DNA from: a virus
Length of the DNA stretch: 57,298 nt
IMG/VR virus record: IMGVR_UViG_3300022670_000646
Location: 1-57,298 of that record
Strand: one strand, 5' to 3'
Below the pieces are notes generated by a model, which was given only the letters and a program-made list of their open reading frames with translations, did not search any database and was not told where the DNA came from. Within the stretch, counting starts at the first letter, position 1. Every line of letters starts with the position of its first letter. A program made the position numbers and the translations under genes. Shown here piece after piece: positions 9,352 to 34,151 of the stretch.

Positions 9352-9370
9352 GGGGTGACATTGTCACCCC
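9352..9370. promoter_or_regulatory. 19-bp perfect palindrome GGGGTGACA-T-TGTCACCCC, copy 1
   Basis: The same 9-bp arms occur at 19732-19750 and 34133-34151. This copy overlaps the scaffold stop codon (9364-9366). Confidence 0.6.
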
Positions 9371-10284
9371 TGAGCGACTTTGTGGGTTGCCTCGTGCTGG
9401 GTGCGAATCTCATACAGCTCGCGCAAGCGCTTCTGCATGGGCTCGTCCTTGTTGTACTCGCTGCGCTTGTCACGCATGAACTTCTCGATTTTTGCGATCT
9501 CATCGTTGAGCGTTTGCGCCGGATCGCCGGTGGGTGCGGTGAGCTGCGCTACCGGGTTGAGTTTCCTCGAGATTTCCGCAAGACCCGCCACGATGCCTGG
9601 ATTGTTCATGATGCCTCGGCCTTCACCATCGCGGGCGTTCAAAAACGCTTCTTTGCTCTCCGCGTTAAAGGTCGATTCGATCAGGGCGCCGACAAGATTG
9701 GTGTTGGCGCGGTAATCCGAGCCCCAGGTCTCGCGCAGCGTATCCTCATACTCCTGCTTGTGCGCCGCATCGGTCTCGGCAATATTGTCCTGCTGTTCTT
9801 CGGCAAAATTGTTGTACCAGTTGATGACCTCGTGGGCCACTTCGGGCTTGACGTTGTGTTTGTGCAGTGAGCCCATGAAGTCGGCCATGATCTCCTTGTC
9901 ACCCTCACCAACGACCATGCCCTCGGGCATATTGTCAAAATAACCGGACGATTCCAGCGGCACACCGTTTGCCTCACGATAAGCCTTGACGTCGTCATCG
10001 GTGGCATTGTCTGGCAACGGCTTCAGGTAATTGCCGGCCGAAATGGTAGTGCGTTGCTCACGAAATGCGTTACCGACATCAGCCAGCGTGGAATAACGCT
10101 CCAGCGTAGACTTGAACTTGTCGTCATCGCCGGCCAGGCCTTCGCGAAAGTCAAAATTCAAGGCCTCATTGCCCTTGTCGACAGACTCGAAAAAGGCATC
10201 TGCGGATTCAAATTTTCCAAGCTGCTCGGCGCGATCGGTGTTATCGCCAGCCAGCCCGCCGTACCATTGTTCGTCTTCAGCCAT
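9364..10284 (-). CDS. Scaffolding protein
   Basis: 306 aa from ATG 10284 (GGAGAA SD). Acidic and predicted helical, located between portal and capsid. The ORF-track start at 10311 was trimmed. Confidence 0.65.
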   Translation of the reverse strand: MAEDEQWYGGLAGDNTDRAEQLGKFESADAFFESVDKGNEALNFDFREGLAGDDDKFKSTLERYSTLADVGNAFREQRTTISAGNYLKPLPDNATDDDVKAYREANGVPLESSGYFDNMPEGMVVGEGDKEIMADFMGSLHKHNVKPEVAHEVINWYNNFAEEQQDNIAETDAAHKQEYEDTLRETWGSDYRANTNLVGALIESTFNAESKEAFLNARDGEGRGIMNNPGIVAGLAEISRKLNPVAQLTAPTGDPAQTLNDEIAKIEKFMRDKRSEYNKDEPMQKRLRELYEIRTQHEATHKVAQG

Positions 10285-10600
10285 CTTGTTCTCCAGCGGT
10301 GCGTACCGCAATTTTATCAGGATCCGTCCGTGCCTCTGCTGACTTTAGCATCCAAATCAAAGTCGTTCCGGCATGACGCCGGCCTTCTGCGAAATCGCTG
10401 CTGCGGGCACTGCCCGGGCGAAACGAGGTGTCGTGAGTACCAAACGCCCAGATCATCCAGTCCAGCGCTCGCCTTTGCTGAGCAGCGCTCGCCTCTCCTC
10501 GGTACAAGGCGCGGATCGCTTGCACATCCGCCTCATGATAATCCGGTCGCTTCAGCGGGTCTGGATTCGGTACTAACGGATCGTCTGATGGTCTTAACAT
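10277..10600 (-). CDS. Conserved-looking hypothetical protein between portal and scaffold
   Basis: 107 aa with an ATGA overlap on the portal stop at 10600. Confidence 0.55.
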   Translation of the reverse strand: MLRPSDDPLVPNPDPLKRPDYHEADVQAIRALYRGEASAAQQRRALDWMIWAFGTHDTSFRPGSARSSDFAEGRRHAGTTLIWMLKSAEARTDPDKIAVRTAGEQDG

Positions 10601-12222
10601 CAGGCTGCATCGGCCGCGGCCAGGTCCTTGATGCCGGCACCGCCCGTTTTAGCCAACTCTGCCATGGCTTGGGCTTCTTGGGCTTCTTTGAGTTCTGCCA
10701 TGGCGGCCTCCACATCGGCGTCACTATTGAGGCGTTCTTCTTTAAGGCCGATACCTTGCAGCGCATCGCGCAAGGTCATGCCAACGTCCAGATAGGCAAT
10801 GGTTGAGGGATCGAGCTGCATCGCACGTTCAATCAAATCCGCCGATTCTAAGAAAATGGAGGCGTCCTTGCGCTCAATAAGATCGTGCAATGGCGATACA
10901 AATTTGAAGTGGATATTACGTCCCTGCAGTTCGCGCGGGATATCCTGAATCGCTCCAAAGTGGCCAGCGCGCAGCAGCGCATCAAAAGTATCTTCACAAA
11001 GCTGGCCGTTGTACTCGGTCTCCATGGGCTCGAACAAGGGCAGTGCGGCGCGGATGTACTCCTGCACGCGCTGACCGACTTCAAACGCCGTCATTTCGGT
11101 ACCTTTTTCTGGCGCTGGTAAGGTCAGTCTATTGATGTAAAAGGCTTCGGCGAGCATTTGCATTTGCGTGTCGTGCACGTTGTATCCAATCGGCAAGCCC
11201 CTGCGGTCCTGATTGATCGGCCGCAGCACGTCACCCTTGCGCTCATCGTAGTCCTGGTCTGCCCAGGTCACACCGCCAGAATAGAGCTGCAGATCGCCGC
11301 GCACCGCGTCAATAGTGGCAATCATCGGCGGACGCACGCTCATCTCACCGGCTTCGAGCAAGGTGAGACTCATCGCCTGCAGAAGACGCGCATCGGGAAG
11401 ACCGGCAATGGTGGCCGGCGAATAGGCGTATTGGCTTCCCGAAACCGTCTGCCAGCGCGGCAGAGTGATGCCGTGCGAGAACAGGCCCATTTCTTTCATG
11501 ATGTGTTTATTGAGCACATCCAGATACACCAGCATCCACGGATAGCCTTCGCCCTCGCCATTCTGGCCGCGGTAGATATCGGTCGACACCGCCAGCCGCA
11601 TGCACTGGTGCGTTTGCAGCGTCTCGGTGCCGGTTTTATTCGCAATGAGCGTGTGCAGGTCCATGCCCATCTCTTGCAGGACCTTGATGCTCGGCTTCCA
11701 CTTCAGATAAATTTCACCGACAGAGCCATCCGCCATCTCGGCCCAGGCGACATCGCGCAAATGCCAGCAGCGGTACAACAGGTGCGGCGAGCGCGCATTC
11801 CAGTTAGTTTCGCGTGTAATGCAGCACTGCCCGAAGGCGGCGTAATCCGCGTCTCCCTCGGAGGTGGCACGAATAAAATACGCTTTGCGGTCATACATCG
11901 CAGCCCGCTGGCGCTTGGTCGCCCATTGCAGCCATTCGATGCCGCCCTTGGACACTTTGTCCATTTCATCCACCTCAGTCTCGAACCAGTCCGAGCTCCT
12001 CGGTCTGAGCATGGCCGCAAAGGAGGTTGATAAATCTCGGTGTACCAGCAGCGGATAGGATGAATACAAGTGATTGGCGAATTCCTCACCAATGTAGCGC
12101 GTCAGGGTGAAATCCGCGCGCTGCGGATAGAAGTTCTCGGCAATTTCCTGCCACAAGGTGGTGGCCGCTTTGCGCTGGGCAAATAATTGGCCGCCCCGCT
12201 CAATGAGTTCGTCTGGCTTCAT
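10600..12222 (-). CDS. Portal protein
   Basis: 540 aa. The N-terminus (LWQEIAENFYPQRADF...SSYPLLVHRDLS...LRPRSSDWF) is typical of podovirus head-tail connector proteins. Lies downstream of terL. Confidence 0.8.
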   Translation of the reverse strand: MKPDELIERGGQLFAQRKAATTLWQEIAENFYPQRADFTLTRYIGEEFANHLYSSYPLLVHRDLSTSFAAMLRPRSSDWFETEVDEMDKVSKGGIEWLQWATKRQRAAMYDRKAYFIRATSEGDADYAAFGQCCITRETNWNARSPHLLYRCWHLRDVAWAEMADGSVGEIYLKWKPSIKVLQEMGMDLHTLIANKTGTETLQTHQCMRLAVSTDIYRGQNGEGEGYPWMLVYLDVLNKHIMKEMGLFSHGITLPRWQTVSGSQYAYSPATIAGLPDARLLQAMSLTLLEAGEMSVRPPMIATIDAVRGDLQLYSGGVTWADQDYDERKGDVLRPINQDRRGLPIGYNVHDTQMQMLAEAFYINRLTLPAPEKGTEMTAFEVGQRVQEYIRAALPLFEPMETEYNGQLCEDTFDALLRAGHFGAIQDIPRELQGRNIHFKFVSPLHDLIERKDASIFLESADLIERAMQLDPSTIAYLDVGMTLRDALQGIGLKEERLNSDADVEAAMAELKEAQEAQAMAELAKTGGAGIKDLAAADAA

Positions 12223-12461
12223 CCCAGCGTGTCCTGATCGGTGAGCTGGGTGCTGGCGCGTGATCCACGACGTTTAGCCGCTTTGCGCCGCTCGTTACGG
12301 CGTACCTCCTCCTCATCGGGAATGAGTGCATTGGCGTACACAGAATCCAGTGCCGCTTGCTTTTTGTCCGCTTTTTCCTTGCGCCGCTCAGCATTGGTCT
12401 TGAAGCCACGACCAAGATGAATATTCACGAGTCGCTTACGGGTATTTGTAAGGCCTGACAT
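12219..12461 (-). CDS. Small basic protein (hypothetical)
   Basis: 80 aa, coupled TAATG to terL and ATGA to portal. Confidence 0.55.
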   Translation of the reverse strand: MSGLTNTRKRLVNIHLGRGFKTNAERRKEKADKKQAALDSVYANALIPDEEEVRRNERRKAAKRRGSRASTQLTDQDTLG

Positions 12462-14095
12462 TATTGTCTCCTCCTTGGTCCCAAATTGACCTGTGGCATG
12501 CGCTTACCCATCGATCGCGGAATCTTACCAACACGCTGGTCCGGGCGCCATTCATTCAAGTGCGTGATTGCCTTCGGCCCCGCCGACCAACTCATGACGA
12601 CAGCATCACCTTTATCCGTTGATCGCCCAAGTGCGGCAACCACGTCTTTTTTCGGCGTCACCTTAATACCATTGGGGGTGACCTCCCAACGCAAGGCCGT
12701 CAGATCGGATACCAGCTCGGGATCGTCTGGTAAAGCGATCGGCGAGCCGCCGTCCTGTCCAGGGTCCAGTGCTTCACGAAAGCCCCAGCAAATTTGCGCG
12801 CGCTTGTTGACGAATTTGAGCTGTTTTTCAGCCGTTCTGCGCACCGATTTATCCATGCCCAGATGCGCGCGTACTTCAATACCGTTTTCTTTCAAGTGCG
12901 CATAAGCCTGTGCACCATTGGTCTCACCGCAATCGAGAATGATCACCGAGTCATTCCTGCGGTGCTTCATGACCAAAGCTGCAACATCCGAGCCGTGCGG
13001 CGTTTCTAACCCAGGCACTGCGATCAGAACAGCAAACCAGCCGTCGTGACGCGGCGCTAATACCGTTTTGTCCTTTCTGCGCGCGGCGTCCACGCCGATG
13101 GCACATTGCGGCACACCATAAGGAGGGTCGGCTTTCCATCTGGCTTGAGCACGCCGGATCCACTCGGTCGGAATAAGCTGGTCGGCTTCGTCCACTCGAG
13201 CCACCATGAAATTGCCATCGCGAATGGCCGAGCGAAATGGCTCCGGCATCGCATCAAGCACTGCGTCATAGCCGGTATCGGCCAAAAACGGGTTATCGCC
13301 CAGATGTGCCGGGATGAAGGTGCGGCTCATCGGTTTCAGGAACCGCGGCGTGCCATCATCGTTCATTTTGCCGCTGGGAATCTCCACATCAGGACCGTCT
13401 ACCCAATGATCCTTGGAATTACCCGCCTCATCGACAAAGGTCACACACCAGCGCAGCTCGCCGTGTTTGGCCGGGCGTGGATAGCGATCATCCAACCACG
13501 GCGCGAACATCGGGATGATCCAGTCACCCCCTGAGTCTGTGGGCGGATTAGAGCCTAAAATAACTCTTTTGCGCTGATCCGGGTCGGTTGAGCGCACCCA
13601 ACCCATGAGAAAGCGAATTTGCATCTCCAGGCACTGCACCACTTCGTCAATGGCCAGTAAATCGTGTGGATTGCCCTGCCAGTGCTTCTCATCGCCGAGT
13701 TTTGCCAACCCGCCAAAATCAATGGTCTTGCCATTCACCGTTTTCAGGCGCGGCGGCGGCGAGCCGTTATAGCCCTTGTCGGTGCCGTTTATTGCGATGG
13801 CACGATCGGTTAATGGGGTCAAATCGACGTAATGCTTGCGAATAATGAGCGAGCGGGTGTGATATTCAAAGGCCATACCGAGAATCAGGTCGGTTTTACC
13901 ACCCCCGCCCTCACCGCCGTAGAGCAACACGTCCGCCAGGCAGTTCACCGCGTCGAGCTGCGGGCCCACGGTCGGAAACCACATGCGATTTTTGGACTGG
14001 TCATCGATGAAGGCATCGAGCTCGGCGCGCTTGTCAGGACTCAGCGCGCCGTATTTTTCCATCAGGTCATCGATTAACGCGGATTCACGGCTCAC
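12461..14095 (-). CDS. terL: Terminase large subunit
   Basis: 544 aa. Walker A-like LLYGGEGGGGKTD and Walker B-like LLAIDEV, followed by a C-terminal nuclease-sized domain. GTG start at 14095; ATG at codon 12 is an alternative. Confidence 0.85.
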   Translation of the reverse strand: MSRESALIDDLMEKYGALSPDKRAELDAFIDDQSKNRMWFPTVGPQLDAVNCLADVLLYGGEGGGGKTDLILGMAFEYHTRSLIIRKHYVDLTPLTDRAIAINGTDKGYNGSPPPRLKTVNGKTIDFGGLAKLGDEKHWQGNPHDLLAIDEVVQCLEMQIRFLMGWVRSTDPDQRKRVILGSNPPTDSGGDWIIPMFAPWLDDRYPRPAKHGELRWCVTFVDEAGNSKDHWVDGPDVEIPSGKMNDDGTPRFLKPMSRTFIPAHLGDNPFLADTGYDAVLDAMPEPFRSAIRDGNFMVARVDEADQLIPTEWIRRAQARWKADPPYGVPQCAIGVDAARRKDKTVLAPRHDGWFAVLIAVPGLETPHGSDVAALVMKHRRNDSVIILDCGETNGAQAYAHLKENGIEVRAHLGMDKSVRRTAEKQLKFVNKRAQICWGFREALDPGQDGGSPIALPDDPELVSDLTALRWEVTPNGIKVTPKKDVVAALGRSTDKGDAVVMSWSAGPKAITHLNEWRPDQRVGKIPRSMGKRMPQVNLGPRRRQ

Positions 14096-14181
14096 AAATT
14101 ATCTCGTTTGACCAATCACAAAAAGGCGACTCAGATACCCACCAGGATACACCCGAGCCGCCCAAGACGTGCCAGAAGCCG

Positions 14182-14715
14182 TTAAACAGTCAGTGCCGTC
14201 AGGTTAACGCGTTCGAAATACACGTCGAAAATGACTGGAGAACCGAGCGTGATGTCGGCAACCAGCAATTCGTAATCGATCGCCGTGTTGGCCTGCGCGG
14301 TAAAGTCAAAGCCCAACGCCACCGGCAAGTGCCGGGAAATACGCATCTCATCCACCGTGGAATCCAAAAAGCCGGTGGTCTCAAGCGAATTCACCACCTG
14401 GATGGCGCCACCAGAATAAACGAAGATCATGTCCTCGCCGGCTGCAATTCCACCAAAGGCCGTACCGGCTGCCTTGGATACATCAATGCGACTGACAATC
14501 AGGGCAAAGCCAGCCCCGGGTGCTGCCACCAGTTCAACAGGGGCTGAGAAACCCGCCAGAACCTGCGCGGCTGTTAAGGAAATTCGGGTGCGGTACTGCG
14601 GGATAATGGTCGCATTGACCATCTCCAGATTGGCATCGTTGAACACCACTTCAGTGTTTTTCGACAAGCCGAAACGCTTGCCATGAATACTCGTTTGAAT
14701 GGTTGGACCGGGCAT
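14182..14715 (-). CDS. Hypothetical protein
   Basis: 177 aa with an AGGAGAA SD before ATG 14715. Confidence 0.65.
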   Translation of the reverse strand: MPGPTIQTSIHGKRFGLSKNTEVVFNDANLEMVNATIIPQYRTRISLTAAQVLAGFSAPVELVAAPGAGFALIVSRIDVSKAAGTAFGGIAAGEDMIFVYSGGAIQVVNSLETTGFLDSTVDEMRISRHLPVALGFDFTAQANTAIDYELLVADITLGSPVIFDVYFERVNLTALTV

Positions 14716-14761
14716 GATCTTCTCCTATTGCTTGCTATCTATTATGAGGAACATGCCGATA

Positions 14762-15034
14762 CTACGCCCTAATGCGCCGCGCTGCCTCTCCATCAACCTC
14801 GCGATGAATCTGAAACCCACGAATGTCGATGTCAAAATACTGCGGAATCTCGAAAATCTTGCCGCGACCCATCATCACCATGGGCTTGCCGTCGTCCAGC
14901 CACGCCAACGAACCCTCCGGCACAAAAAATCGCTTCGAAGGAATCGAGATCACCTTTTCACCAGGCATCCACAGACCAGACGCCGTGAGCACACCACCGG
15001 CCATGATAGCCGCCATGAATTCCCTGCGATTCAC
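14762..15034 (-). CDS. Small protein with a twin-arginine (Tat)-type signal peptide
   Basis: 90 aa. The N-terminus (M)NRREFMAAIMAGGVLTASGLW matches the S/T-R-R-x-F-L-K consensus plus an h-region. GTG start with GTGA overlap at 15034. Confidence 0.5.
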   Translation of the reverse strand: MNRREFMAAIMAGGVLTASGLWMPGEKVISIPSKRFFVPEGSLAWLDDGKPMVMMGRGKIFEIPQYFDIDIRGFQIHREVDGEAARRIRA

Positions 15035-17657: not shown

Positions 17658-18257
17658 CTATTGGTTATCAGGAGCTGCTGCTTGCGGGGTTGCCGTCTCC
17701 GTCGCCTTGCCTTCAATCAGAGCTCCGGCCTTCTCGTTCTCTATCAGCAAACAAGCGAAGCGGCGCATACGTTCACGGTCTGATAGATCAAGCGTGTGAT
17801 TCACCTCGCCGCTGTGTTTGACCTCCACTGACGGGCCGTATAGATGCGGAGCAACAGCAGCCATAAGGCGTAGACGTGTGTCCACCCGCAGTTTGGAGCG
17901 CTGCACATGCTCAGTGTCAAGAGCCTCATATTCAACACCATTGCGCCCCTTCTTGATGATGTAGTCAGTCGTCCCATCGTCCGCAATCAGCACGCTTTCG
18001 TCAGCCCATGTGTGCATCTGATTATGTCGCGCGCGGGTGAACCTCTCCTGAAAGGCAGAATTCTCATGCTTCCACCGATAAACCGTTGTTGTTGATGGCA
18101 TATCGCGCTGCAGGCATATCTGTACCAGTGTTGTGCCGCTTTCCAGTTGTTCGAAGATGGAACGCGCCAGCGCCTCAGAATAGATCGTCGGACGACCAAT
18201 AATCGCTTTGTCTTCAGGAGTAGTGTCTGTTGCTTGCAGGGTATGGGTTTCAGACAT
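17658..18257 (-). CDS. terS: Terminase small subunit
   Basis: 199 aa. GRPTIYSEALARSIFEQLESGTTLVQICLQRDMPSTTTVYRWKHENSAFQERFTRAR matches the HTH-type phage small-terminase N-terminus. First gene of the late block. Confidence 0.65.
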   Translation of the reverse strand: MSETHTLQATDTTPEDKAIIGRPTIYSEALARSIFEQLESGTTLVQICLQRDMPSTTTVYRWKHENSAFQERFTRARHNQMHTWADESVLIADDGTTDYIIKKGRNGVEYEALDTEHVQRSKLRVDTRLRLMAAVAPHLYGPSVEVKHSGEVNHTLDLSDRERMRRFACLLIENEKAGALIEGKATETATPQAAAPDNQ

Positions 18258-19186: not shown

Positions 19187-19462
19187 ATGAGCAAGAAAGA
19201 CGAGCCGCGCCAGTGCTTCTACATATCGCCGCTTGAATACGACGAGGGCCGCGGCTATGTACCTAGCCTTGTTGTCGAGAACGAGCCGGGCCGGAGCCCC
19301 ATGAGAGGCCGCGGCGAGTTCGCCGAGCCTTGGTATTGGGGCAAGACCTTGGAACAAGCCGAGCAGACCTGTGAACGCGTGAACAAAGATCGCTACGGCA
19401 TCAGCCACCAAACGGCAGCCCGCATTGTTGCCAGCAGCATGGCAGCAGGGAGTATTCACTGA
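19187..19462 (+). CDS. Hypothetical protein
   Basis: 91 aa with a GAGGAG SD before ATG 19187. Confidence 0.6.
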   Translation: MSKKDEPRQCFYISPLEYDEGRGYVPSLVVENEPGRSPMRGRGEFAEPWYWGKTLEQAEQTCERVNKDRYGISHQTAARIVASSMAAGSIH

Positions 19463-19676
19463 TGGCAACAACCAAGCAGCAGCCAATCGCGAGGATGGCA
19501 GCCTGTACCCGGGAGTCGGTCACGGCGCGCCAGCGTCGCGCATGGCACTCAGAAACCGCGGCCTGATCGAGAACAAAGAGCAGCCTTGCAAGGCCTACAA
19601 AGGCCTGACCTGGGATGAGGTAATCACCGAGGCAGGCCGCGAGGCTTTAGCCGAGGCACGAGCTGCGGGCTGGTGA
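19425..19676 (+). CDS. Uncertain ORF
   Basis: 83-aa track ORF that overlaps the previous gene. Alternatives are a coupled 34-aa ORF (19462-19566, TGATG junction) and a 44-aa ORF from ATG 19542. Confidence 0.3.
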   Translation: MLPAAWQQGVFTDGNNQAAANREDGSLYPGVGHGAPASRMALRNRGLIENKEQPCKAYKGLTWDEVITEAGREALAEARAAGW

Positions 19677-19731
19677 GTAACCGCGCCAAGTGGCTGGCCC
19701 TGGCCGGCTGTTTGGCGGGAGTTATTCCCAA

Positions 19732-19750
19732 GGGGTGACAATGTCACCCC
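19732..19750. promoter_or_regulatory. 19-bp perfect palindrome GGGGTGACA-A-TGTCACCCC, copy 2
   Basis: Intergenic, 22 nt upstream of ATG 19773. Confidence 0.6.
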
Positions 19751-20195: not shown

Positions 20196-20270
20196 TGTCT
20201 AATTCACTTATGGAGATTAGTGAAAAAGATAAAGTCAGGTTGGCGAGGCAGCGGCAGACGCGGAGAGGAT

Positions 20271-20426
20271 ATGCCAACCGCAAAACTATCTACCATCCAA
20301 GTTATCGAGATTCGCGAACGCTACGCTATCGGCAAGGTGATGCAGAAAGATTTGGCTGCGGAGTACGGCATTAGCAGGGCCCAGATGCACAACATTCTAA
20401 ACAGAAAGCAATGGACGCACATTTAG
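20271..20426 (+). CDS. Small HTH protein resembling the C-terminal module of the HNH protein at 25212..25700
   Basis: 51 aa from ATG 20271 (GGAGAGG SD). AKLSTIQVIEIRERY...LAAEYGISRAQMHNILNRKQWTHI compares with AKLTEAGVLEIRQS...LAKQYGVTRRTIYKVRAKKSWCHV. Confidence 0.5.
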   Translation: MPTAKLSTIQVIEIRERYAIGKVMQKDLAAEYGISRAQMHNILNRKQWTHI

Positions 20427-21355: not shown

Positions 21356-21883
21356 TCAAATTCCATGTGTGCTGCTAAAACCAAGCCTTATCTCCGCTGA
21401 CCTACGGCGGCAACAAGCTTCAAAAAAGTCCTTGCCAGCATATAGATAATACCTCTTACCCTGAGAATCTATCGTGGACTGCCATCTTTGTCGAGTTTTC
21501 TGCCAATAAACTCCCGTGATGCCGTATGTATTATCGGACCTCTTGCCTCTGTTCTTACAATTGTCTGAGCGAGTCGCTGGACGTAAGTTTTTCAGTCTAT
21601 TATCCAGTGAATTACGATTGATGTGGTCAATCTCGTCAACCAAGACACCATGCACGATCAGCCAAATAATCCGTGCCACGTTATAAACTTTACCATTGAT
21701 TTTAACGCGGCGAGAAACGTACCCTTGCTTCGTCCTTACTGTTGATCCAGCTATAGATCCGACCTTGTATTTACTATTACAAGCCGGAGACCGCCTGATT
21801 AGATTCTCTCCATCGTACTCAAAGCGCTCGATAGCAACCGCAAGATTCAGCATTTTTATCAATCCAAAACATCCTGATATCAC
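21356..21883 (-). CDS. HNH-AP2 homing endonuclease
   Basis: IDHINRNSLDNRLKNLRPATRSDN (HNH) followed by GITGVYWQKTRQRWQSTIDSQGKRYYLYAGKDFFEA (AP2-like). AT-richer than its flanks by eye. The likely start is ATG 21853 (MLNLAV). Confidence 0.75.
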   Translation of the reverse strand: MISGCFGLIKMLNLAVAIERFEYDGENLIRRSPACNSKYKVGSIAGSTVRTKQGYVSRRVKINGKVYNVARIIWLIVHGVLVDEIDHINRNSLDNRLKNLRPATRSDNCKNRGKRSDNTYGITGVYWQKTRQRWQSTIDSQGKRYYLYAGKDFFEACCRRRSAEIRLGFSSTHGI

Positions 21884-23726: not shown

Positions 23727-25215
23727 ACGCTATATTCCTCGACGTTATCCAGTTAAGTACCCTCTTGTCAGGCGGCACAGAGACCATGTTCATCCAGTGC
23801 CGCTCTGGCCAGCAGCCACACTTTTCTTTGAATTTCACGGCCGCCCAGCCGGGCTTGTAGTTGTGCTCGGCGCCGTAGCGCTTCAACATGCAGAAGAGAA
23901 TCTCGTGCGACACCCATCCCTTTGGCAGCTTCTCCACCAACGCTTTGCCGATGCGCACCAGATCAGCTTGAGTGGTGGCGACGTCGCGTTTTGTAAACGG
24001 CACCTTCCAGCCACATTCCGGGCATACCCTGGAGCGGCTGAAAATATAATGGCACTCCTCGCACTCGTGCTGTTTGGCCTCCTCAGCCTCTCCGGATTCT
24101 TCGTTGCGCGTCCAGTTCTCGCAGGCCTTCTTGCCCGGATCTAGGCGCCAACGAAACAGGTCATCTGCCTGCCCAAGTGCTGGCACGTTGCCGGCGTGAT
24201 CTAGGACCATGGTGGCACCACCATCGATATTCGGACGCATACCTCGGCCAAGGGATTGATGATGGAAAACGATGCTTTTGGTCGGCCTAGCTAAGACCAC
24301 ACAATTGATACTTGGAGCATTGTACCCGTAACTCGCGATTCCAACGTTTACAAGCACTTGAATTATCTGGGATTTGAACTGTTCGTTAAGCTGATCTCGA
24401 TCGCTATCATCAAGGTGAACGTGCAATGCACCGGCACTAATTCCAACCTGCTTAAACCGATCGGCGAGCAGCTCACAATGAGCAATATCAACAGCAAACA
24501 CTATCGTATGGCAATCAGAGGCCAACCGCAGCCAGTTGTCGACGACATCTCCCACTAATTTCACACAGCGATTTGACAGTTTTTTTACCTCATAATCGCC
24601 GCGCCGAATCTTAATCCCCTCCATGTCTGGTGTAGCACCCCCCCAGTATTCCATTTTGCAAAGATGTCCATCTTTGACAAGCCTTCTTATGGTTGTGATG
24701 TGCTTTAGAGTCGACCAGAATGTTCCAAGACCCTTACCAGTCAGTCTGGCTGGCGTTGCTGTATAGCCATCGATAGCAGCCTTGGGTGCATAGTGTTCAA
24801 GTATTTCCAGAATCTTAGGGGCGGTTGACAAATGGCACTCATCGGTCAACAGACGGTCCACCTTTGGAAACCAAAAGTCAGAGCGCCGAGCACGTGAAAT
24901 CAGTGTAGGCCACGACACAATATGAATTGGGGATACCGGATTCCATCGCTCACCCTCCCTTTTTGCCCTGAGCATGGTGACGTTTTCTGCACCACAAACC
25001 TCACTTACAATATTATGAGTCTGACCAAATATCTCATTACGCGGAGTCAAAATCGCCGTCGAATTGCCGCGCTCCATTTCACGCTTTGCGGTAAATGCCT
25101 GCATCAAACTTTTGCCTGATCCGCACGGGGCTATGTGTATTGGCCGCAATTCTTTACCATGATTCAAAGCATAATTAACGGACTCCTCTTGGTAATCTCG
25201 AAGAACGAATGTCAT
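23674..25215 (-). CDS. Superfamily-2 DEAD/DEAH-box DNA helicase with a C-terminal zinc ribbon
   Basis: 513 aa from ATG 25215 (ATGA overlap). Motif I APCGSGKS, motif II TDECH, C-terminal CEECHYIFSRSRVCPECGW. Confidence 0.85.
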   Translation of the reverse strand: MTFVLRDYQEESVNYALNHGKELRPIHIAPCGSGKSLMQAFTAKREMERGNSTAILTPRNEIFGQTHNIVSEVCGAENVTMLRAKREGERWNPVSPIHIVSWPTLISRARRSDFWFPKVDRLLTDECHLSTAPKILEILEHYAPKAAIDGYTATPARLTGKGLGTFWSTLKHITTIRRLVKDGHLCKMEYWGGATPDMEGIKIRRGDYEVKKLSNRCVKLVGDVVDNWLRLASDCHTIVFAVDIAHCELLADRFKQVGISAGALHVHLDDSDRDQLNEQFKSQIIQVLVNVGIASYGYNAPSINCVVLARPTKSIVFHHQSLGRGMRPNIDGGATMVLDHAGNVPALGQADDLFRWRLDPGKKACENWTRNEESGEAEEAKQHECEECHYIFSRSRVCPECGWKVPFTKRDVATTQADLVRIGKALVEKLPKGWVSHEILFCMLKRYGAEHNYKPGWAAVKFKEKCGCWPERHWMNMVSVPPDKRVLNWITSRNIAYAKGREKSERRKSSVSS

Positions 25216-25700
25216 ACGTGACACCAGCTTTTTTTCGCACGCACCTTGTAGATTGTCCGGCGGGTAACGCCATATTGTTTGGCTAAGATTCTTGGAGCTT
25301 TTGTGCTTTGTCTTATTTCCAATACCCCTGCTTCGGTCAATTTGGCCTGCGGCTTCTGACTTCCTACCTTATGTAACATTGCCGTGTTATCTCGCCCTCG
25401 TTCTATGCAATCCGCCCTATTTGTTTTCGCACTGCCTGCGTAAAGGTGATCGGGATTAATACAGTCTGTGACATCACAATGGTGGCAAATGTGCACCCCG
25501 TCTGGAATTGCGCCATGAGCAATATGATAAGAAACCCTATGTGCTAAGTATCTCTTATTGTTGATTGTTAGCAGCCCGTAGCCTTGGCGATGCTTCCAGC
25601 CCCTCCATCTCCAACACCCAGCAGCGTCTACCACATAGCCATTCAGAATCCTTTTCTTAATGGATTCAGTGATCTGGTACTGGCGTTCCTCAATCTCCAC
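25212..25700 (-). CDS. HNH endonuclease with a C-terminal HTH module
   Basis: 162 aa. GYGLLTINNKRYLAHRVSYHIAHGAIPDGVHICHHCDVTDCINPDHLYAGSAKTNRAD. Confidence 0.8.
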   Translation of the reverse strand: MEIEERQYQITESIKKRILNGYVVDAAGCWRWRGWKHRQGYGLLTINNKRYLAHRVSYHIAHGAIPDGVHICHHCDVTDCINPDHLYAGSAKTNRADCIERGRDNTAMLHKVGSQKPQAKLTEAGVLEIRQSTKAPRILAKQYGVTRRTIYKVRAKKSWCHV

Positions 25701-27586: not shown

Positions 27587-27793
27587 TCAGCCATTGGAGT
27601 CGTGTCCTTTCTCGGCAGGCTCATAGCCCCATTTGTCCTCGGCCTGTTTCCGAGTGGCAGCGGTGAACTTAGGGCGATTTTCGCAACGCCAGTTAGCACA
27701 TAGGACCGCCCAAGTGACGTTATCCGTCAGGAAGTCTTCTTCCTTTATGAGCTTCGGGTGCGCTCCGCAGTTAGGGCATTTTTTGAGGGTCAC
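27587..27793 (-). CDS. Lar-like restriction-alleviation protein
   Basis: 68 aa from GTG 27793 (GGGGA SD, GTGA overlap). LKKCPNCGAHPKL...WAVLCANWRCENRP...RKQAEDKW fits the Lar zinc-ribbon pattern. Confidence 0.55.
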   Translation of the reverse strand: MTLKKCPNCGAHPKLIKEEDFLTDNVTWAVLCANWRCENRPKFTAATRKQAEDKWGYEPAEKGHDSNG

Positions 27794-28547: not shown

Positions 28548-28741
28548 TGCCTATCTCCTACTAAAGTATTCTGCCAATCAATAACCGGCTGAATCAGCAC
28601 CATCGTTTCTTCGTGCCAACTATCGATCATGGAAAGATCGCAGTCATCAACGACAAGATTGCCAACACATAATGGGCAGCAAGTATTTTTAACGGTCACT
28701 CGCACTACGCTCCCTTCACCAGCGGCGATTGTTCTCTGCAT
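28544..28741 (-). CDS. Small Cys-containing protein; start uncertain
   Basis: Start is either ATG 28741 or GTG 28705. Contains CCPLC. Confidence 0.4.
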   Translation of the reverse strand: MQRTIAAGEGSVVRVTVKNTCCPLCVGNLVVDDCDLSMIDSWHEETMVLIQPVIDWQNTLVGDRQ

Positions 28742-29244
28742 CCCCACGGCTCCAGCTTTTCGCATTGTCCAGGTGAACAGGAGCACCAGTTTACCCTTGC
28801 ACTAAGCATGGTCTGCAGAGCCTTGAGTGCTTCATCATGGCTGCCCATCTGTAACATTTCGAATACGCCCTTAACCTCGGGCAATATTTCATCATTGATC
28901 GATGGCTGGTAAACAATAGCCCCGGGCCTAACATCCAAGTCGCCAACTGCAACCGCTTCGAGCTGTACAGGAGGCGGATTCGGCACCACCTTGACGTAGT
29001 TCTCAAACTCGAACGCATCGACAATGCTCATGCGGCCATCGCCATGTTTGACAAGCCACGCAAGATCAGGAATCGGCAGCTCCTCGCCGTTAATCGTGAT
29101 CCAATTTTGGCCATCAATGGTGAGAAACGCTCGACTGTCCAGCCACTCAGGCCATAGCTTTTCCTGATAGCGAGATGACTCGGTGATCTGATAACCCTCG
29201 ATCGTTTCATCACCAATGGTGTAGCGAAAATCTTGGTCAGCCAT
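28705..29244 (-). CDS. Hypothetical protein
   Basis: 179 aa from ATG 29244 (MADQDFRY...). Confidence 0.55.
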   Translation of the reverse strand: MADQDFRYTIGDETIEGYQITESSRYQEKLWPEWLDSRAFLTIDGQNWITINGEELPIPDLAWLVKHGDGRMSIVDAFEFENYVKVVPNPPPVQLEAVAVGDLDVRPGAIVYQPSINDEILPEVKGVFEMLQMGSHDEALKALQTMLSARVNWCSCSPGQCEKLEPWGCREQSPLVKGA

Positions 29245-29968
29245 CGAAATCCCTTTTCGTTTGTTCAAGTGATGGAGTACGGTATGCGATGACCGCGTGC
29301 GCTGCCCATGTGGACACATACTCCAAATCCGCGACATCCGCTTGAGTCAGGTCCAGCCTGAGCGCATCGCCACCCGGATACGGGAAAGCCTTATACAGTG
29401 CGTTCGCCTGCCGGAGCTCATCGCGTTCGGTCTCCGCTTGTGTCGGCTCCGGCTTGGCCGCGCGATTATCGTCCGGGCTTGGCTCCTGAGTAGAGTTGGG
29501 GGGTGAATCGTTCACCCCTGGTTCTGCCGCTGCCGCCTGGTTCGCGATTCGTTGCACCGTGCGCTTGGTAACACAGCAAATATCGGCTTGCTCCTGACGG
29601 CTCATTTGGGATATCTGCGGGTCCTTCAGGGCGATCTCAACGGCGTTTCGCTTGTCAGCGCTAGTGCGACGCAGGCCGTGCTCGCTGTTCCCACCAAGCG
29701 CGTGTATGAGCGCCTCGTGCATGCCGCCTTCGTGGACTTCGCACTCTATTTCGTCCCGCTCAGCATGGACCGCGGCATAAAGACGGTGAAAACCGCGTGA
29801 GAGAATCGTTCTCGAGGAGTCCTTCTCACGAAACACATCGATCGGCGGCATAATGGCGCCCGCCTTGATGTCCTCGCAATACTCGTCAATGATGTCCTTG
29901 TGCAGCCGGGTGCGAACCTGGGTTTTATCTGATGCCTCTATGGAATCGCATTTAAGAAACGTCGCCAC
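29237..29968 (-). CDS. ParB/Srx-fold (ParB-like nuclease domain) protein with an HTH
   Basis: 243 aa from GTG 29968 after GAGGAG. The N-terminal domain has SRGFHRLYAAVHAE (DGxHR-type ParB/Srx motif), and ICCVTKRTVQRIANQ is HTH-like. Confidence 0.7.
   Translation of the reverse strand: MATFLKCDSIEASDKTQVRTRLHKDIIDEYCEDIKAGAIMPPIDVFREKDSSRTILSRGFHRLYAAVHAERDEIECEVHEGGMHEALIHALGGNSEHGLRRTSADKRNAVEIALKDPQISQMSRQEQADICCVTKRTVQRIANQAAAAEPGVNDSPPNSTQEPSPDDNRAAKPEPTQAETERDELRQANALYKAFPYPGGDALRLDLTQADVADLEYVSTWAAHAVIAYRTPSLEQTKRDFDG
29500..29518. promoter_or_regulatory. Variant palindrome GGGGTGAA-TCG-TTCACCCC inside the ParB-like gene
   Basis: 8-bp perfect arms. The outer 7 nt of each arm match the three 19-bp palindromes. 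Confidence 0.45.
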
Positions 29969-30257
29969 CGCTACTCTCCTCAGCTTTTAGCGGTAGCTCC
30001 TGCTGGCTGTTGTAAATCCGCTCGAGTTCGGCTTCGTGCTCATTCGCAAGATCAGTCACTACTCGATAGCGCAGGCTTTTCGTCTGATTGCTGCAGCTTA
30101 ACCGCATCACATCATAGGGATTGATCTCGGTTTTGCTCTCTTTGCAGATGCGCTGGCCAGCCTCACGCATCGCAACGATCATCGCACTCAGTCGCTCATC
30201 AGACTGCGCCCGCATACGCTGCCGGAACGTTACTCTTTTCGCTTTGCTTTTCTTCAT
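29952..30257 (-). CDS. Hypothetical basic protein
   Basis: 101 aa, ATGA coupling at 30257. Confidence 0.55.
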   Translation of the reverse strand: MKKSKAKRVTFRQRMRAQSDERLSAMIVAMREAGQRICKESKTEINPYDVMRLSCSNQTKSLRYRVVTDLANEHEAELERIYNSQQELPLKAEESSGGDVS

Positions 30258-30514
30258 GTCGGATCCCTGTTCAGTAGTTCGTCCTCGGCCGCGGATAGGA
30301 AGTCACGGTTTTTCGACTCCAGCACCCTGACCTCCTCGACGGTCATAGCCTTGCCGTCGTCATGAAATCGGTACTTTGGCAACGGCACCGGGTCTATCTT
30401 TTCAACGCGCCAGCGCAAATAGCCCGATGGAATGTCCGTGATGTCCTGGCCTTTGTGCTTACCGAAATGGCATTTCACTTCACTCTCCTCATCAAAATAG
30501 GGTTCCCGCGACAC
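30254..30514 (-). CDS. DUF3820-like protein
   Basis: 86 aa. FGKHKGQDITDIPSGYLRW motif. GTG 30514 preceded by AAGGAAA. Confidence 0.55.
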   Translation of the reverse strand: MSREPYFDEESEVKCHFGKHKGQDITDIPSGYLRWRVEKIDPVPLPKYRFHDDGKAMTVEEVRVLESKNRDFLSAAEDELLNRDPT

Positions 30515-31084
30515 TTGGCCGCTTTCCTTTGCAACCTTGTTGGGCGACTACCTCCAACGACATAATGGTCTTGTGGATGCTCCGGCGCACGATTTGTTCA
30601 CACCCACTAACGTGGTTGGTTTCACGCACCATCGGGCAAGGACTGTTTGTCGTGCTCATTAAATTCTGTATTACAGATATACCTCCGGCCCTTCCCTTGT
30701 CGGAACCCAAGGTCAGTTGATGCCTTCTCTTGTCGTGCCTTACAGGGACCAAGATCAACGGACGGCCGGTAGGTCCTTCCTTGGATTTGTCTCGGTTTGA
30801 GTTCACAAACTGCTTTGAAGTGGCACCGGACCCAAAGCCGCGAGCTTCGGAACGTATCCGGTTGATTGGCGTATATCCGGATTGCCAACCTTGACCACCA
30901 TCAAAACAGCCTGTTACACGGTCAGACCTCTCCAAAACACCGCTGGAACGCGGGAAGGTCTTGCAGATTGCAGACGGATTCATGCTAGAATGCCTGCATC
31001 TGGTCTCCAAGCCGAGCGCATTACCAGATACGAGGCCCCTCCCTATTCGCAACGGAGGGGCTTCATTCATTGAGAGTATCGAAA
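30515..31084. other. 570-nt region without a convincing native gene: candidate structured RNA, replication origin or orphan ORF
   Basis: The only long ORF (30492..31088, minus strand, 198 aa) uses 8 AGA/AGG Arg codons and 5 ATA Ile codons, against 0 AGR and 1 ATA in the capsid gene. Many short stem-loops. TTGTCGTGC at 30647 and 30730, related words at 30697 and 30787, and an AT-rich patch at 30655-30683. Confidence 0.4.
31035..31070 (+). terminator. GC-rich hairpin with a plus-strand U-rich tail (candidate terminator of an antisense/plus transcript)
   Basis: GCCCCTCC (31035-31042) pairs with GGAGGGGC (31054-31061), followed by TTCATTCATT on the plus strand. There is no U-tract on the minus strand. 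Confidence 0.35.
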
Positions 31085-31585
31085 TCACGCCGTCTCCGCA
31101 ATAGAGGTTCGTTGCTTTTCGCGGAACAGCACCTTTTCTGCGATCGATTTATTTTCGACCGATAGATTACAAGGAAAACAGGCCATAACTAAATTAAATG
31201 GATGATTATTACCGCCCTTGCTGATCTCAAGTAAGTGCTCCAGCGTCAGGATTATTTCCAGCCCACAGAACCAACATGCCGGTCCATCTCTAGCAATAAT
31301 GGTCCGCTCAAGAACTGTCTTACCTTTACCTGGGCGCTTGGTTTTATCGCCATCAAGGCCAGACCACGATTTTCTATTGATATAGCAGTCATACGCCTCG
31401 GCAAGGGCATCGTCCCAAGTCAAGTTGCCCCGCTTATTTTTGTAGAGAACCGATATTTGACCACGAACATTAACGCGCAAAACCTCCCACTCATTCGTAG
31501 GTGACAATAGTGCGGCACCGTTCCTCGATAGATATTCCCGGAACTTTTTTAGGCGCAACTGGCTATTGTGGACAGGTATTGTCAT
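31085..31585 (-). CDS. HNH nuclease with a novel-looking N-terminal domain
   Basis: 166 aa. CWFCG...TLEHLLEISKGGNNHPFNLVMACFPCN (HNH). ATGA overlap with the ATPase stop. Confidence 0.7.
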   Translation of the reverse strand: MTIPVHNSQLRLKKFREYLSRNGAALLSPTNEWEVLRVNVRGQISVLYKNKRGNLTWDDALAEAYDCYINRKSWSGLDGDKTKRPGKGKTVLERTIIARDGPACWFCGLEIILTLEHLLEISKGGNNHPFNLVMACFPCNLSVENKSIAEKVLFREKQRTSIAETA

Positions 31586-33282
31586 TCGAAAAACACCGAC
31601 GCGGCCTTTATGCCGCCATCACGAGCGTAACCATCTGCGGCACCGATCGAGCGCAATCGACTCAGCACATTTCCGAAATGACTACTGGTTCGGCTGTAAC
31701 CTGAACTCACGCATATATCATCCTCAGTGACGCGCGCGCCGTTCGCTAAAATCAGTACGTCGAGGATTTTGTTCGCTGCGCCACCTAGCTTCGGCCGCAA
31801 CCATTCCCGCAACTCAGGGCCGGTCGGTTTTTCTTCGGCAACCGGACTCATGACCGCTTCGCCAGCCTCAGTAATTCGCCAACCGCTCACCAGGCCAGCG
31901 GTACGCAAGCTGCTAATAACGTTACCAAGATGGCTGCTTTTCGACGAGTAACCGGCATAAAATGACAGCTTATTTTTCGTCGCTTCCTCATCGCGTAACC
32001 ACCAGAACGCTCGCAGGATGGCCACCTGAGCCTTGCCTAGACTATCAATCTGTGGAGGTGCGGCAGAAGACGCATTATGTCCCACGAGGACACCTACTGG
32101 AGGTGCAGAGGGCCGCTCTGGCTGAGCAAGTTTTTTCTGTGTCACTTTCAGCAACGGCGGCACTGGCACATCAGAGTCAGGATTTATCATTTCCAGCAGT
32201 TCATTGACATAATTAAAAGCCGATTTTTGCGCGCACTGCAGCGAACTCACCCGATCCTCGAGCTGACTCACGTACTCGACTAGCTTCGAAGTATTCTCAC
32301 GCAAAACCTCTAACTCACCGTTATCTCTGTCATTTTTTGATAGCTTGATTTCCTTTTCCAGCACGCGAATACGCTGTTTCAATAGCTTCGGGTCAATCTC
32401 TTGAGCGCGTTTGATCGTACCGGCCATCTGCTCACGCAATCTCGATACGTCGACATCGGCCAGGCGGGCTGTCTTGCTTTTCACTGCCATTTTCGGCGTC
32501 GATCCAGAATCGAACGTATTACGGCGGCGGAACTTTACCTGTTTTGTGCATTTCAGAAACTGCGGCGACCACACCCACGCCTCGCCGTTAGCGAGCCCAG
32601 GCAGCGTCTTGAGTATGTCGCGAGACTGGTCGTTGTACTTAACCCATTCCTCAATCGCCTTGCGATCTTGAGGTCCTGTAGTTCGCATGGCGATCAGGGT
32701 CTGTACTTGCGTCAGCACGTTTTTGTTTATCGATGCACTGCGCTGAGTGATCATCGTCATTCCAAGACCCCGGGCCCGGCCGCGCCGAACGATATTCTCC
32801 CACGCACGCAATAACTGCCCCTCATCACGCATCGGTCGCTGCGGAATGTAGTCGTCAGCCTCCTCAAGGAATAGATGCAGCGGTTCCTCGTTGCGCTTAT
32901 ATAGACGCCGCGAAAAATCGAGTAAAAACTGTTTCTTTGCCGCCTCGCTATCGAAGTCTGTCAAATCCAAGATGCACGACAGACGCTCATCGACAACGAT
33001 ATCGGCAATCAGGCGACCACCAGTGCGCTCCAACGGCACATCGCCGCGCTTTCCGCCGAACAGCGGTATATCAAGACCTGCACCGGAGCCAGTTTTCGAC
33101 GATCGCATACCCCACCACGATCCAACCGGATCAACGACAACGAATGGCAGCTCACGGGCGAACATTTCTTCAGCCATAACGGTCGCAGAATTCGACTTCC
33201 CGGCGCCGCGAGCCGCAAGAATCCCGAAAGTTTCAGTGATCGCCTCATCTGGTATCGAGAAGCCTTTACCGAGATTTAGCAT
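31582..33282 (-). CDS. HerA/FtsK-type (DUF87-like) P-loop ATPase with two C-terminal winged-helix-like repeats
   Basis: 566 aa. Walker A GILAARGAGKSN, VVVDPVGSWWG, Walker B LFLEEADDYIP, a coiled-coil linker, then the repeated modules SSHLGNVISSLRTAGLV and SSHFGNVLSRLRSIGAA. Confidence 0.7.
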   Translation of the reverse strand: MLNLGKGFSIPDEAITETFGILAARGAGKSNSATVMAEEMFARELPFVVVDPVGSWWGMRSSKTGSGAGLDIPLFGGKRGDVPLERTGGRLIADIVVDERLSCILDLTDFDSEAAKKQFLLDFSRRLYKRNEEPLHLFLEEADDYIPQRPMRDEGQLLRAWENIVRRGRARGLGMTMITQRSASINKNVLTQVQTLIAMRTTGPQDRKAIEEWVKYNDQSRDILKTLPGLANGEAWVWSPQFLKCTKQVKFRRRNTFDSGSTPKMAVKSKTARLADVDVSRLREQMAGTIKRAQEIDPKLLKQRIRVLEKEIKLSKNDRDNGELEVLRENTSKLVEYVSQLEDRVSSLQCAQKSAFNYVNELLEMINPDSDVPVPPLLKVTQKKLAQPERPSAPPVGVLVGHNASSAAPPQIDSLGKAQVAILRAFWWLRDEEATKNKLSFYAGYSSKSSHLGNVISSLRTAGLVSGWRITEAGEAVMSPVAEEKPTGPELREWLRPKLGGAANKILDVLILANGARVTEDDICVSSGYSRTSSHFGNVLSRLRSIGAADGYARDGGIKAASVFFE

Positions 33283-33539
33283 CCACGATCCCCTATAGCA
33301 TCGTCGATTGCTTTGAGCTGCTCATCGCTGATGCCGCCAAGCTGTGGGTTATGCAGGTTTGCCGACACCATGCGCAGCAGACCTTTCAATACGACTGCAT
33401 CCTCATATCGCACCCAATCACCGTTGTACTTCTCGGTGATGGCAATGCGGGCAATGGCTGTATTGCGCTGCGCTGGTGCCACTCCTGTAACGGACTGCTG
33501 GCCGCGCGTGATTTCGGAAGTGATGTTGTAGCGCTTCAT
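33276..33539 (-). CDS. Hypothetical protein
   Basis: 87 aa from ATG 33539 (ATGA overlap). Confidence 0.5.
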   Translation of the reverse strand: MKRYNITSEITRGQQSVTGVAPAQRNTAIARIAITEKYNGDWVRYEDAVVLKGLLRMVSANLHNPQLGGISDEQLKAIDDAIGDRGC

Positions 33540-33769
33540 CTCGGCAGCCTCGGCGGCAGTTGTTTCGGGCAGTGCCGGCAAACTGGAGCTGCCCATAAAA
33601 AGAAATATCCGACCGCATCCTTTTCGATCTCAGCCTTGTCGGGCTCGCCACCAAGATCAACGCGCGCTACCCAGTCGTGCTGACCAAGCAGGCAGGCAAC
33701 CCATTGCATTGTGGTAGGTTCCTTGCGAGTGACGGCATCCGGCATCATGTCAGGGATTGCGATACTCAC
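33536..33769 (-). CDS. Hypothetical protein
   Basis: 77 aa from GTG 33769 (GTGA overlap). Confidence 0.45.
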   Translation of the reverse strand: MSIAIPDMMPDAVTRKEPTTMQWVACLLGQHDWVARVDLGGEPDKAEIEKDAVGYFFLWAAPVCRHCPKQLPPRLPR

Positions 33770-33900
33770 TGCAGCAGCCAATAAATGATTAGACCAACCG
33801 CCATGAGAACGAATGGCAGGTCAAAAAACCAGAATTTAATTGGATTTTCTTCAAATTCATCGATCAGGCGCCGAAATACGCCGCGTTTTTGTTTGGTCAT
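33766..33900 (-). CDS. 44-aa membrane peptide
   Basis: MTKQKRGVFRRLIDEFEENPIKFWFFDLPFVLMAVGLIIYWLLQ. ATGA overlap with the RHH gene stop. Below the track cut-off. Confidence 0.45.
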   Translation of the reverse strand: MTKQKRGVFRRLIDEFEENPIKFWFFDLPFVLMAVGLIIYWLLQ

Positions 33901-34049
33901 ACAGGAATCCCCTTCTTTTCCGCCTGACGATGGATGTGATTCAACACATAGTTGGCAGCACTGATGCCTTCCTGATTCGCCAGCTTATGTAAGGCTTCAC
34001 GCTCAAGCTCTTTCAAGCGCATTTGAAACTTCTTGTCTTTTCTGTCCAT
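33897..34049 (-). CDS. Ribbon-helix-helix (Arc/MetJ/CopG-like) regulator
   Basis: 50 aa from ATG 34049. KKFQMRLKELEREALHKLANQEGISAANYVLNHI fits a strand-helix-helix layout. No SD. The track ORF extends to 34163 through implausible hydrophobic sequence. Confidence 0.6.
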   Translation of the reverse strand: MDRKDKKFQMRLKELEREALHKLANQEGISAANYVLNHIHRQAEKKGIPV

Positions 34050-34056
34050 ACACGGT

Positions 34057-34085
34057 AATGTACACACAAACGGCATGACATGCAA
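34057..34085 (-). promoter_or_regulatory. Candidate promoter giving a leaderless RHH mRNA
   Basis: On the minus strand: TTGCAT (34085-34080), 17-nt spacer, TACATT (34062-34057), then 7 nt to ATG 34049. Confidence 0.4.
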
Positions 34086-34132
34086 CATGCACACGCGAGG
34101 AAAAAAAATGACGCCGAATAAGCCAATTGAGG

Positions 34133-34151
34133 GGGGTGACATTGTCACCCC
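34133..34151. promoter_or_regulatory. 19-bp perfect palindrome GGGGTGACA-T-TGTCACCCC, copy 3
   Basis: Located in the divergent control region between the RHH gene and the plus-strand recombination operon, 14 nt upstream of ATG 34166. Confidence 0.65.

Follow-up and report, generated by a model that had tools for sequence, protein, structure and literature searches.

Dispersed 19-bp palindromes in a 57-kb phage genome and an orphan ParB-like protein as their candidate binder

The viral record IMGVR_UViG_3300022670_000646 (57,298 nt; "the window" below, meaning the whole stretch of DNA that was analysed) carries a small family of 19-bp palindromes that lie at gene boundaries and, in one case, inside a gene for a ParB-like protein. 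These palindromes are, on balance, probably parS/OB-like sites of that protein, an orphan of the ParB/Noc/KorB type encoded by the phage itself. We infer this binding partner from the covariation of its recognition helix with the palindrome in related phages, whose contigs and loci are given L numbers here. Relatives with another recognition helix carry other palindromes at the same places, and the palindromes are therefore read as docking sites of the ParB-like protein. A preliminary description of this DNA had proposed a site for a phage-encoded dimeric DNA-binding protein, and on the comparative data this is still the best reading of the motif.

The 19-bp palindromes and their surroundings

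The pattern GGGGTGANNNNNTCACCCC (GGGGTGA-N5-TCACCCC) has four exact matches in the window (sites 1–4, Table 1), against 0.00 on average and 0 at most in dinucleotide-preserving shuffles of the same DNA, and the family is non-random as first described. No other perfect palindrome with arms of 8 bp around a 3-nt centre occurs anywhere in the 57 kb. Sites 1, 2 and 4 have the form GGGGTGACA(A/T)TGTCACCCC, a 9-1-9 palindrome with a free central base, and are identical over 21 nt (AGGGGTGACAATGTCACCCCC) when read on the minus, plus and minus strands, respectively. These three copies were described as standing just upstream of start codons, which the distances bear out: 16 nt for site 1 (ATG 9335, minus), 22 nt for site 2 and 14 nt for site 4. 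The reported overlap of site 1 with the scaffold stop codon is also correct. The intrinsic-terminator test found a GC-rich hairpin at the window copies and, in agreement with the preliminary description, no T-run 3' of any of them; terminator scans of the window do not list these sites either.

Two further matches are not counted as members of the family. The 2-mismatch match at 46711 has no support, and the 1-mismatch copy in terL (13512–13530), initially included as a degenerate member, is an imperfect palindrome that arises as a by-product of the coding sequence of GGDWIIP, a conserved terminase peptide; relatives use nearly the same codons and have no palindrome. The palindrome was also considered as part of a longer repeat unit or of a mobile element; this was rejected, since the flanks align over only 1–2 nt, positional homologues excepted.

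Table 1. Palindromic sites in the window and the genes discussed with them
Feature	Position	Strand	Sequence or size	Context
Site 1	9352–9370		GGGGTGACATTGTCACCCC, 9-1-9	overlaps the stop of the scaffold-like open reading frame (ORF) 9364–10311(−)
Site 2	19732–19750		GGGGTGACAATGTCACCCC	within the plus-strand operon with DnaJ and helix-turn-helix (HTH) genes, 22 nt upstream of ATG 19773
Site 3	29500–29518		variant GGGGTGAATCGTTCACCCC, 8-3-8	in the gene of the ParB-like protein, at codons 151–156 (GVNDSP), which belong to the disordered linker that follows the HTH
Site 4	34133–34151		GGGGTGACATTGTCACCCC	116-bp divergent region between the ribbon-helix-helix (RHH) gene (−) and the Erf/YqaJ recombination operon (+), 14 nt upstream of ATG 34166
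ParB-like gene	29237–29968	−	243 aa	orphan ParB/Noc/KorB-fold protein, proposed binder
RHH (CopG/NikA-like) gene	33897–34049	−		adjoins site 4; conserved syntenic neighbour, not supported as binder
Further palindrome	7666–7680		TGTGACTTAGTCACA	same GTGAC-N3-GTCAC core, other outer bases; membership in the window's system uncertain

The start codon beyond site 1 belongs to a 45-aa ORF (9198–9335, minus) within the hypervariable gap between the scaffold and capsid genes, and L003 has the same 19-mer at another place in this gap. The gap (8884–9363) measures 480 bp in the window and 130 to 1634 bp in relatives and forms an insertion hot spot for small genes. Two small and very basic ORFs lie in it, the first of which (9057–9188, 43 aa) is conserved in L019, L039, L069 and L122; no homologue was detected for the second, the 45-aa ORF. 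A conserved hairpin at the scaffold stop codon was considered and rejected, the gaps of the relatives having no hairpin in common.

Site 2 begins 2 nt after a degenerate palindrome, GGGAGTTATTCCC (19717–19729), and its position is kept with conserved flanks in L098:1898, L101:678, L133:17685 and L135:10858. The degenerate palindrome belongs to a second family, GGGAAT-S-ATTCCC, which at the site-2 position lies upstream of the main motif by 2–17 nt and reaches four copies in relatives (L122:18251, 19034, 19630 and 20209; also L007, L017, L028, L037, L098, L101, L138, L150 and L153). Its copies stand after a longer hairpin and a few nt before a Shine-Dalgarno sequence and ATG. This second family was tried as the site of the ParB proteins with the helix VHKNTVQRTSVR and rejected; it occurs with several ParB helix classes and therefore probably has a different binder. 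A short ORF (19677–19739), the GTG start of which overlaps the stop of ORF 19425–19676, ends at a TGA inside site 2. Its candidate peptide, MSNRAKWLALAGCLAGVIPKG, contains the lipobox-like LAGC, and a similar peptide can be read by eye in L101.

The variant at site 3 recurs identically at L085:3100, where it is intergenic. At the same position of the parB linker, L084 and L136 have the consensus motif in another reading frame, and because it is kept in two frames (GVNDSP versus GGDNVTP) the parB-internal site is a DNA-level element. For site 4, L131 has GGGGTGAAACTTTCACCCC in the corresponding region, and at the homologous position L139 and L142 have ATGTGACTAAGTCACAT, 29 nt upstream of the homologous first recombination gene. 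A candidate sigma-70 promoter in the same divergent region, TTGCAT-17-TACATT (34057–34085, minus), was found by eye and is not listed by the consensus scan; it ends 7 nt before the RHH start codon and would make the RHH transcript nearly leaderless.

Many IMG/VR contigs encode portal proteins that are 45–71% identical to that of the window. The exact 19-mer was found in three IMG/VR contigs and in 29 metagenome contigs, 12 of which encode homologues of window proteins. Bacterial and archaeal genomes (596 Gb) gave nine scattered single matches in unrelated taxa, with about four expected by chance as a rough estimate. A host-genome repeat would need many chromosomal copies, and with matches at about the chance level the palindrome is not a host repeat resembling repetitive extragenic palindromes (REP) or miniature inverted-repeat transposable elements (MITE), and the motif is counted as specific to this phage clade. 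Besides the places already named, relatives carry the motif just after terS (L004), downstream of the RHH gene (L103, L112 and L131) and after an endolysin-like gene (L085/L095). A start codon usually follows 12–30 nt downstream of the motif in these relatives, with a Shine-Dalgarno sequence in between. The preliminary description had made conservation of position a test of its reading, and the outcome is divided: some positions, such as the site-2 place and the parB linker, are kept, and others are not.

The ParB-like protein and covariation of its helix with the palindrome

The AlphaFold2 (AF2) model of the ParB-like protein (mean predicted local distance difference test score, pLDDT, 90.5) predicts a ParB (CTPase-fold) domain at the N-terminus, followed by an HTH, a disordered linker and a C-terminal domain of helices. 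The HTH helices comprise residues 124–131 and 135–148, the latter (KRTVQRIANQAAAA) being the recognition helix. The top Foldseek matches of the model are ParB-CTP, Noc and KorB (8qa8/8qa9) with E-values of 1e-7 to 1e-4 over about 146 aligned columns, and the alignment spans the N-domain and the DNA-binding domain of these proteins. The protein also matches PHROG 1033, a family annotated as ParB-like, and precomputed Pfam assignments of its homologues include PF02195 in many and the HTH families PF13545 and PF00325 in some. By its predicted structure the protein is thus of the ParB/Noc/KorB-type fold, with both an N-domain and an HTH in the model, and the site inside parB together with the helix covariation gives it, by computation, a putative cognate palindrome in its own gene. 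The residues Q17-x-R19, G59-F-H-R62-x-x-A65 and N94...R100 vary little or not at all among 56 homologues, and these conserved positions (Q17/R19, G59–A65 and N94/R100) resemble what we take to be ParB boxes I–III. Conservation of this N-terminal pocket suggests nucleotide binding and possibly clamp loading.

The comparison set consisted of 118 ParB homologues and the DNA of 32 distinct contigs, including the window. Where the recognition helix has the form V[TS]KR[TS]VQ[RT][IV]AN, the motif is present in seven of nine contigs (the window, L084, L112, L131, L133, L135 and L136). With other helices it is present in none of 23 contigs, covering about 319 kb. Identity of the whole ParB protein to that of the window is similar in the two groups, at 51–64% for those with the motif-associated helix versus 48–58% for those with other helices. 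The informative exceptions are L123, L134, L137 and L141, which are nested in the clade of motif-associated helices and have altered helices and no motif; they are few, and L134 has assembly gaps.

Several relatives with another helix carry another odd-centred palindrome, in part at places homologous to sites of the window or of its close relatives. L137 (helix VTKRTVNKIKNQ) has the 9-1-9 palindrome GGTGGGAACGGTTCCCACC at the same parB-linker codons (L137:5601), which differs from the internal site of the window by symmetric changes in both arms. L141, with QK for QR in the helix, has ATGGAACAAAGTTCCAT at the parB-linker position (L141:958). In L139 and L142 (helix VTRETVNRISRR) the palindrome is TGTGAC-N3-GTCACA, in three and two copies respectively, and one copy takes the site-4-like place before the recombination gene. 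L148 (helix VTDRTVRKIRDD) has two copies of GAACGGAAA-N-TTTCCGTTC (5302 and 20631), one of them just after terS, as the motif is in L004. L151 (helix VVHQTVANIRDE) has two copies of TTGGCTAATTTAGCCAA (1480 and 2954), one of them 13 nt upstream of parB.

The palindrome dispersed in L139 and L142 is also found once in identical form in the window, as TGTGACTTAGTCACA. It lies in the gap between ORF 6949–7659(+) and ORF 7739–8017(−) and is followed by a GC-rich hairpin, AGGGGCCG...CGGCCCCT; an imperfect copy is located at about 52020–52034. The 1.5 Mb of loci contain four matches to it, compared with an estimated 0.1 or so by chance.

A number of observations weigh against the ParB-like protein as the binder. 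L129 and L130 have the window-type helix and only 1-mismatch copies at the internal parB position, albeit on contigs that cover a region in which the window also has no other site. The helix of L141 equals that of the window save for one R to K change, yet the motif is absent from its 5 kb. The association of helix and motif (Fisher p = 1e-5) ignores kinship, and in a ParB tree from which the helix and linker were left out the motif-associated helices fall mostly in one clade, so that the association is partly confounded by descent. Simple criteria found no repeated palindrome in several other helix classes, including NERTVRRIRDD and ITREAVNRISRR. Support from profiles is weak: PF02195 matches the protein with an E-value of 0.0043 and 17.5 bits, below the cut-off of 26.3 bits, and the PDB profile search gave E = 0.3. 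The consensus scan found no sigma-70-like promoter beside sites 2 and 4, and a place 12–30 nt from a start codon within an operon is unusual for a classical operator. To these are added features that suit an RNA hairpin, namely the perfect symmetry of every allelic form, the stem-loop predicted in every copy and a terminator-like copy in a relative, which are taken up with that explanation below.

Alternative readings of the palindrome

The allelic forms of the motif vary in the centre only (CA-N-TG, where N is A, T, C or G; AATCGTT; AAACTTT), and in all variants the symmetry extends past the conserved half-site (C..G, A..T or AA..TT). A central base that may be any of A, T, C or G between conserved arms of 8–9 bp fits a dimer on duplex DNA. 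The same sequences would form a transcribed RNA stem-loop with an 8-bp GC-rich stem and a 3-nt loop, which at gene boundaries might act as an attenuator or terminator lacking a U-tract, a stabiliser of 3' or 5' ends, a processing signal or the site of an RNA-binding protein. Complementarity is perfect in every allelic variant, most copies separate genes of a single operon and lie just 5' of the Shine-Dalgarno sequence, and in one 63-nt context the hairpin is the sole structure (centroid −14.4 kcal/mol). Copies also occur between convergent genes at L098:5279 and L133:4430, and only the latter is followed by a T-run (TTTTT); it looks like a true intrinsic terminator. A stem-loop alone, however, would tolerate compensatory changes in the stem, and instead all 19 positions are kept across phages with proteins 45–70% identical. 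The folds of the 63-nt contexts are ordinary when compared with shuffles (z −1.0 to −1.9), and the free central base, the lack of a U-tract after the window copies and the copies inside the parB coding region do not suit this explanation either. The changes in the palindrome that follow the DNA-binding helix of ParB also point away from RNA, and an RNA stem-loop as the function of the motif is regarded as unlikely.

The sites could also be operators of another DNA-binding protein: the RHH protein, the Cro-like HTH protein, an unrecognised phage protein or a host factor. Because the ParB helix class is confounded by descent, any clade-specific protein could be the partner. Site 4 lies within the divergent region of the RHH gene and the recombination operon, the motif is just downstream of the RHH gene in the three relatives noted above, and one copy in L098 abuts an HTH gene. 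Against the RHH protein, the residues of its beta-strand do not co-vary with the palindrome, and it was rejected as binder. Phages that have GGGGTGAC sites share the strand KHFDMRL with others that have TGTGAC sites, the window shares KKFQMRL with motif-less phages, and in L084 and L133 the RHH gene is present and the motif is absent from its region. The Cro-like HTH protein is not supported as binder: its recognition helix is not the same in all motif-bearing phages and is similar to the helix found in motif-less ones. The motif is not enriched in bacterial genomes. Of the three candidates named in the preliminary description, only the ParB-like protein is favoured by the comparative data, and a binder other than this protein is considered rather unlikely.

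A third alternative is that the palindromes are extruded as DNA hairpins or cruciforms, serving as promoters for an N4-type virion RNA polymerase, as priming or origin signals, or as targets at which a structure-specific nuclease or recombinase would shuffle gene cassettes. An 8-bp stem with a 3-nt loop resembles the early promoters of phage N4, and a start codon 12–30 nt downstream would suit a transcription start just 3' of the hairpin. The motif is often located at mosaic junctions, with the same upstream flank and different downstream genes (the window, L098 and L101) or in the scaffold-to-capsid gap, and the genome has several genes for HNH endonucleases. The scanned ORFs include no gene for an RNA polymerase or an HUH/Rep-like protein, though, and one copy lies between late structural genes and another inside a coding region. 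A virion RNA polymerase has no support: the large virion proteins, the largest of which are Bbp10-like, match no polymerase by family or by structure. Extrusion would also leave the covariation with the ParB HTH without explanation, and this alternative is highly improbable.

The phage genome, a proposed mechanism and known systems

An exact 144-bp direct repeat at the ends of the window (1–144 and 57155–57298) indicates that the phage genome is complete and was assembled as a circle, with a size of about 57.15 kb (57,154 bp). No near-identical genome or close relative was found among deposited phages (INPHARED). The virion and terminase genes are distantly related to those of BPP-1/CP2-type phages, with a terL product approximately 40% identical to those of BPP-1-type podophages. 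Most genes are on the minus strand; the two plus-strand islands are the DnaJ-HTH operon with site 2 and the recombination operon with site 4. A pattern search of IMG/VR found no relatives of the 352-aa first gene of the latter operon.

No ParA/SopA, integrase, protelomerase or RNA polymerase gene was found among the scanned ORFs, which do not cover all small ORFs, and no families for plasmid-prophage replication or maintenance were detected among them. The 210-aa ORF adjoining parB downstream was tried as a ParA and rejected, as it has no Walker A motif.

The 1473-aa virion protein (43037–47458) is Bbp10-like. It and an 860-aa protein (52260–54842) match the C- and N-terminal parts, respectively, of one PHROG family (9880; 2231 positions; Bbp10-like), and a large virion protein seems to have been split into two genes about 5 kb apart. 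The Sf6-type small terminase gene (17658–18257) is located about 3.5 kb from the large terminase gene (12461–14095), with some ten small ORFs of unknown function between them; no family matches ORF 14182–14715, which adjoins terL. Genes or gene remnants for HNH endonucleases number three or four (21356–21883, 25212–25700, 31085–31585 and 20220–20426), and one of them has an IscB-like HNH region. The N-termini of two tail-fibre-like proteins (1398–2033 and 40702–42714) match the same DNA stretch in L085, L092 and L095, and this common N-terminal domain is presumably an attachment module.

In the mechanism proposed for the ParB-like protein, a dimer would read the two GGGGTGA(C/A) half-sites through its HTH and leave the central base unread. 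One site is inside parB and the others would place the protein immediately 5' of ribosome-binding sites at three boundaries: the recombination operon/RHH region, the DnaJ-HTH operon and the scaffold-to-capsid gap. From these sites the protein would most likely control the adjacent genes as well as its own. It might do so as a bound repressor or roadblock, or by loading at the site as a nucleoside triphosphate (NTP)-dependent clamp and sliding, as KorB does; we infer both the nucleotide dependence and the sign of the regulatory effect. A broader and more tentative proposal, which is at present rather doubtful, is that a ParA-less, probably non-integrating phage clade uses an orphan clamp of the ParB-CTPase fold as a genome-wide expression switch. 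Such a clamp would load at a few 19-bp sites upstream of selected genes and in its own gene, and helix and site would have co-diversified into many specificity classes, much like immunity groups.

The analysis offers a concrete, testable pair of protein and site. The natural series of helix and palindrome variants at homologous positions could help to decipher the recognition code in this branch of ParB proteins, and the system allows one to ask what role a ParB-type protein has in a phage that lacks a partition ATPase.

Dispersed intergenic repeats are known from actinophages, where they include the stoperators of Cluster A, the start-associated sequences of Cluster K and the 17-bp palindromes of Cluster O. 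Like the motif described here, these are short conserved sequences at gene boundaries, some immediately upstream of start codons. They differ in sequence and host and have far more copies, and the stoperators are asymmetric and bound by the immunity repressor. To our knowledge, no ParB-type binder is involved in any of them.

Phage N15 also has about four separate copies of a perfect centromere palindrome (IR1–IR4) in its genome, of the form GTGCGACC-NN-GGTCGCAC, which are bound by the ParB-family protein SopB (PMC7205306). N15 is a linear low-copy plasmid prophage that needs active partition by SopB with SopA to be inherited stably (PMC7205306). A comparable partition role had been thought conceivable for the present palindromes; it is not supported, since the ORFs scanned in the complete genome include neither SopA/ParA nor a protelomerase or integrase.

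VirB of the Shigella plasmid pINV, BisD of ICEclc and Noc are, like the protein described here, ParA-less HTH proteins of the ParB fold that bind specific palindromes, and they regulate genes or organise DNA (PMC10770331, PMC12409273, PMC12704722). In contrast to the present case none is a phage system, and their sites and targets are unrelated. A 2025 survey found numerous orphan ParB-fold homologues, often on mobile genetic elements and also on phages, many of them uncharacterised, and almost none of those on phages or mobile elements has a known DNA target or role (PMC12704722). The phage ParB proteins that activate thymine dioxygenases have no DNA-binding domain and belong to a different branch (PMC13229309).

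The closest functional comparison is with KorB of the IncP plasmid RK2, which likewise combines a ParB fold and an HTH with an odd-centred palindrome (OB core TTTAGCGGCTAAA; PMC11790492). KorB is a transcription regulator that loads at OB as a sliding clamp dependent on cytidine triphosphate (CTP), with OB sites both at promoters and away from them (PMC11790492). Unlike the phage protein, KorB also serves in partition as the partner protein of IncC (a ParA) and cooperates with KorA; no ParA was found among the scanned ORFs of the phage, and no KorA-like partner was identified. The phage sites are 19 bp long, few (four) and 12–30 nt from start codons, the replicon is a phage, and any use of CTP is putative here. 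Since KorB, VirB, BisD, Noc and N15 SopB already act at dispersed palindromes, the system would introduce no new principle; if the clamp switch proved true, it would be an instance of KorB-like regulatory logic not yet described for phages.

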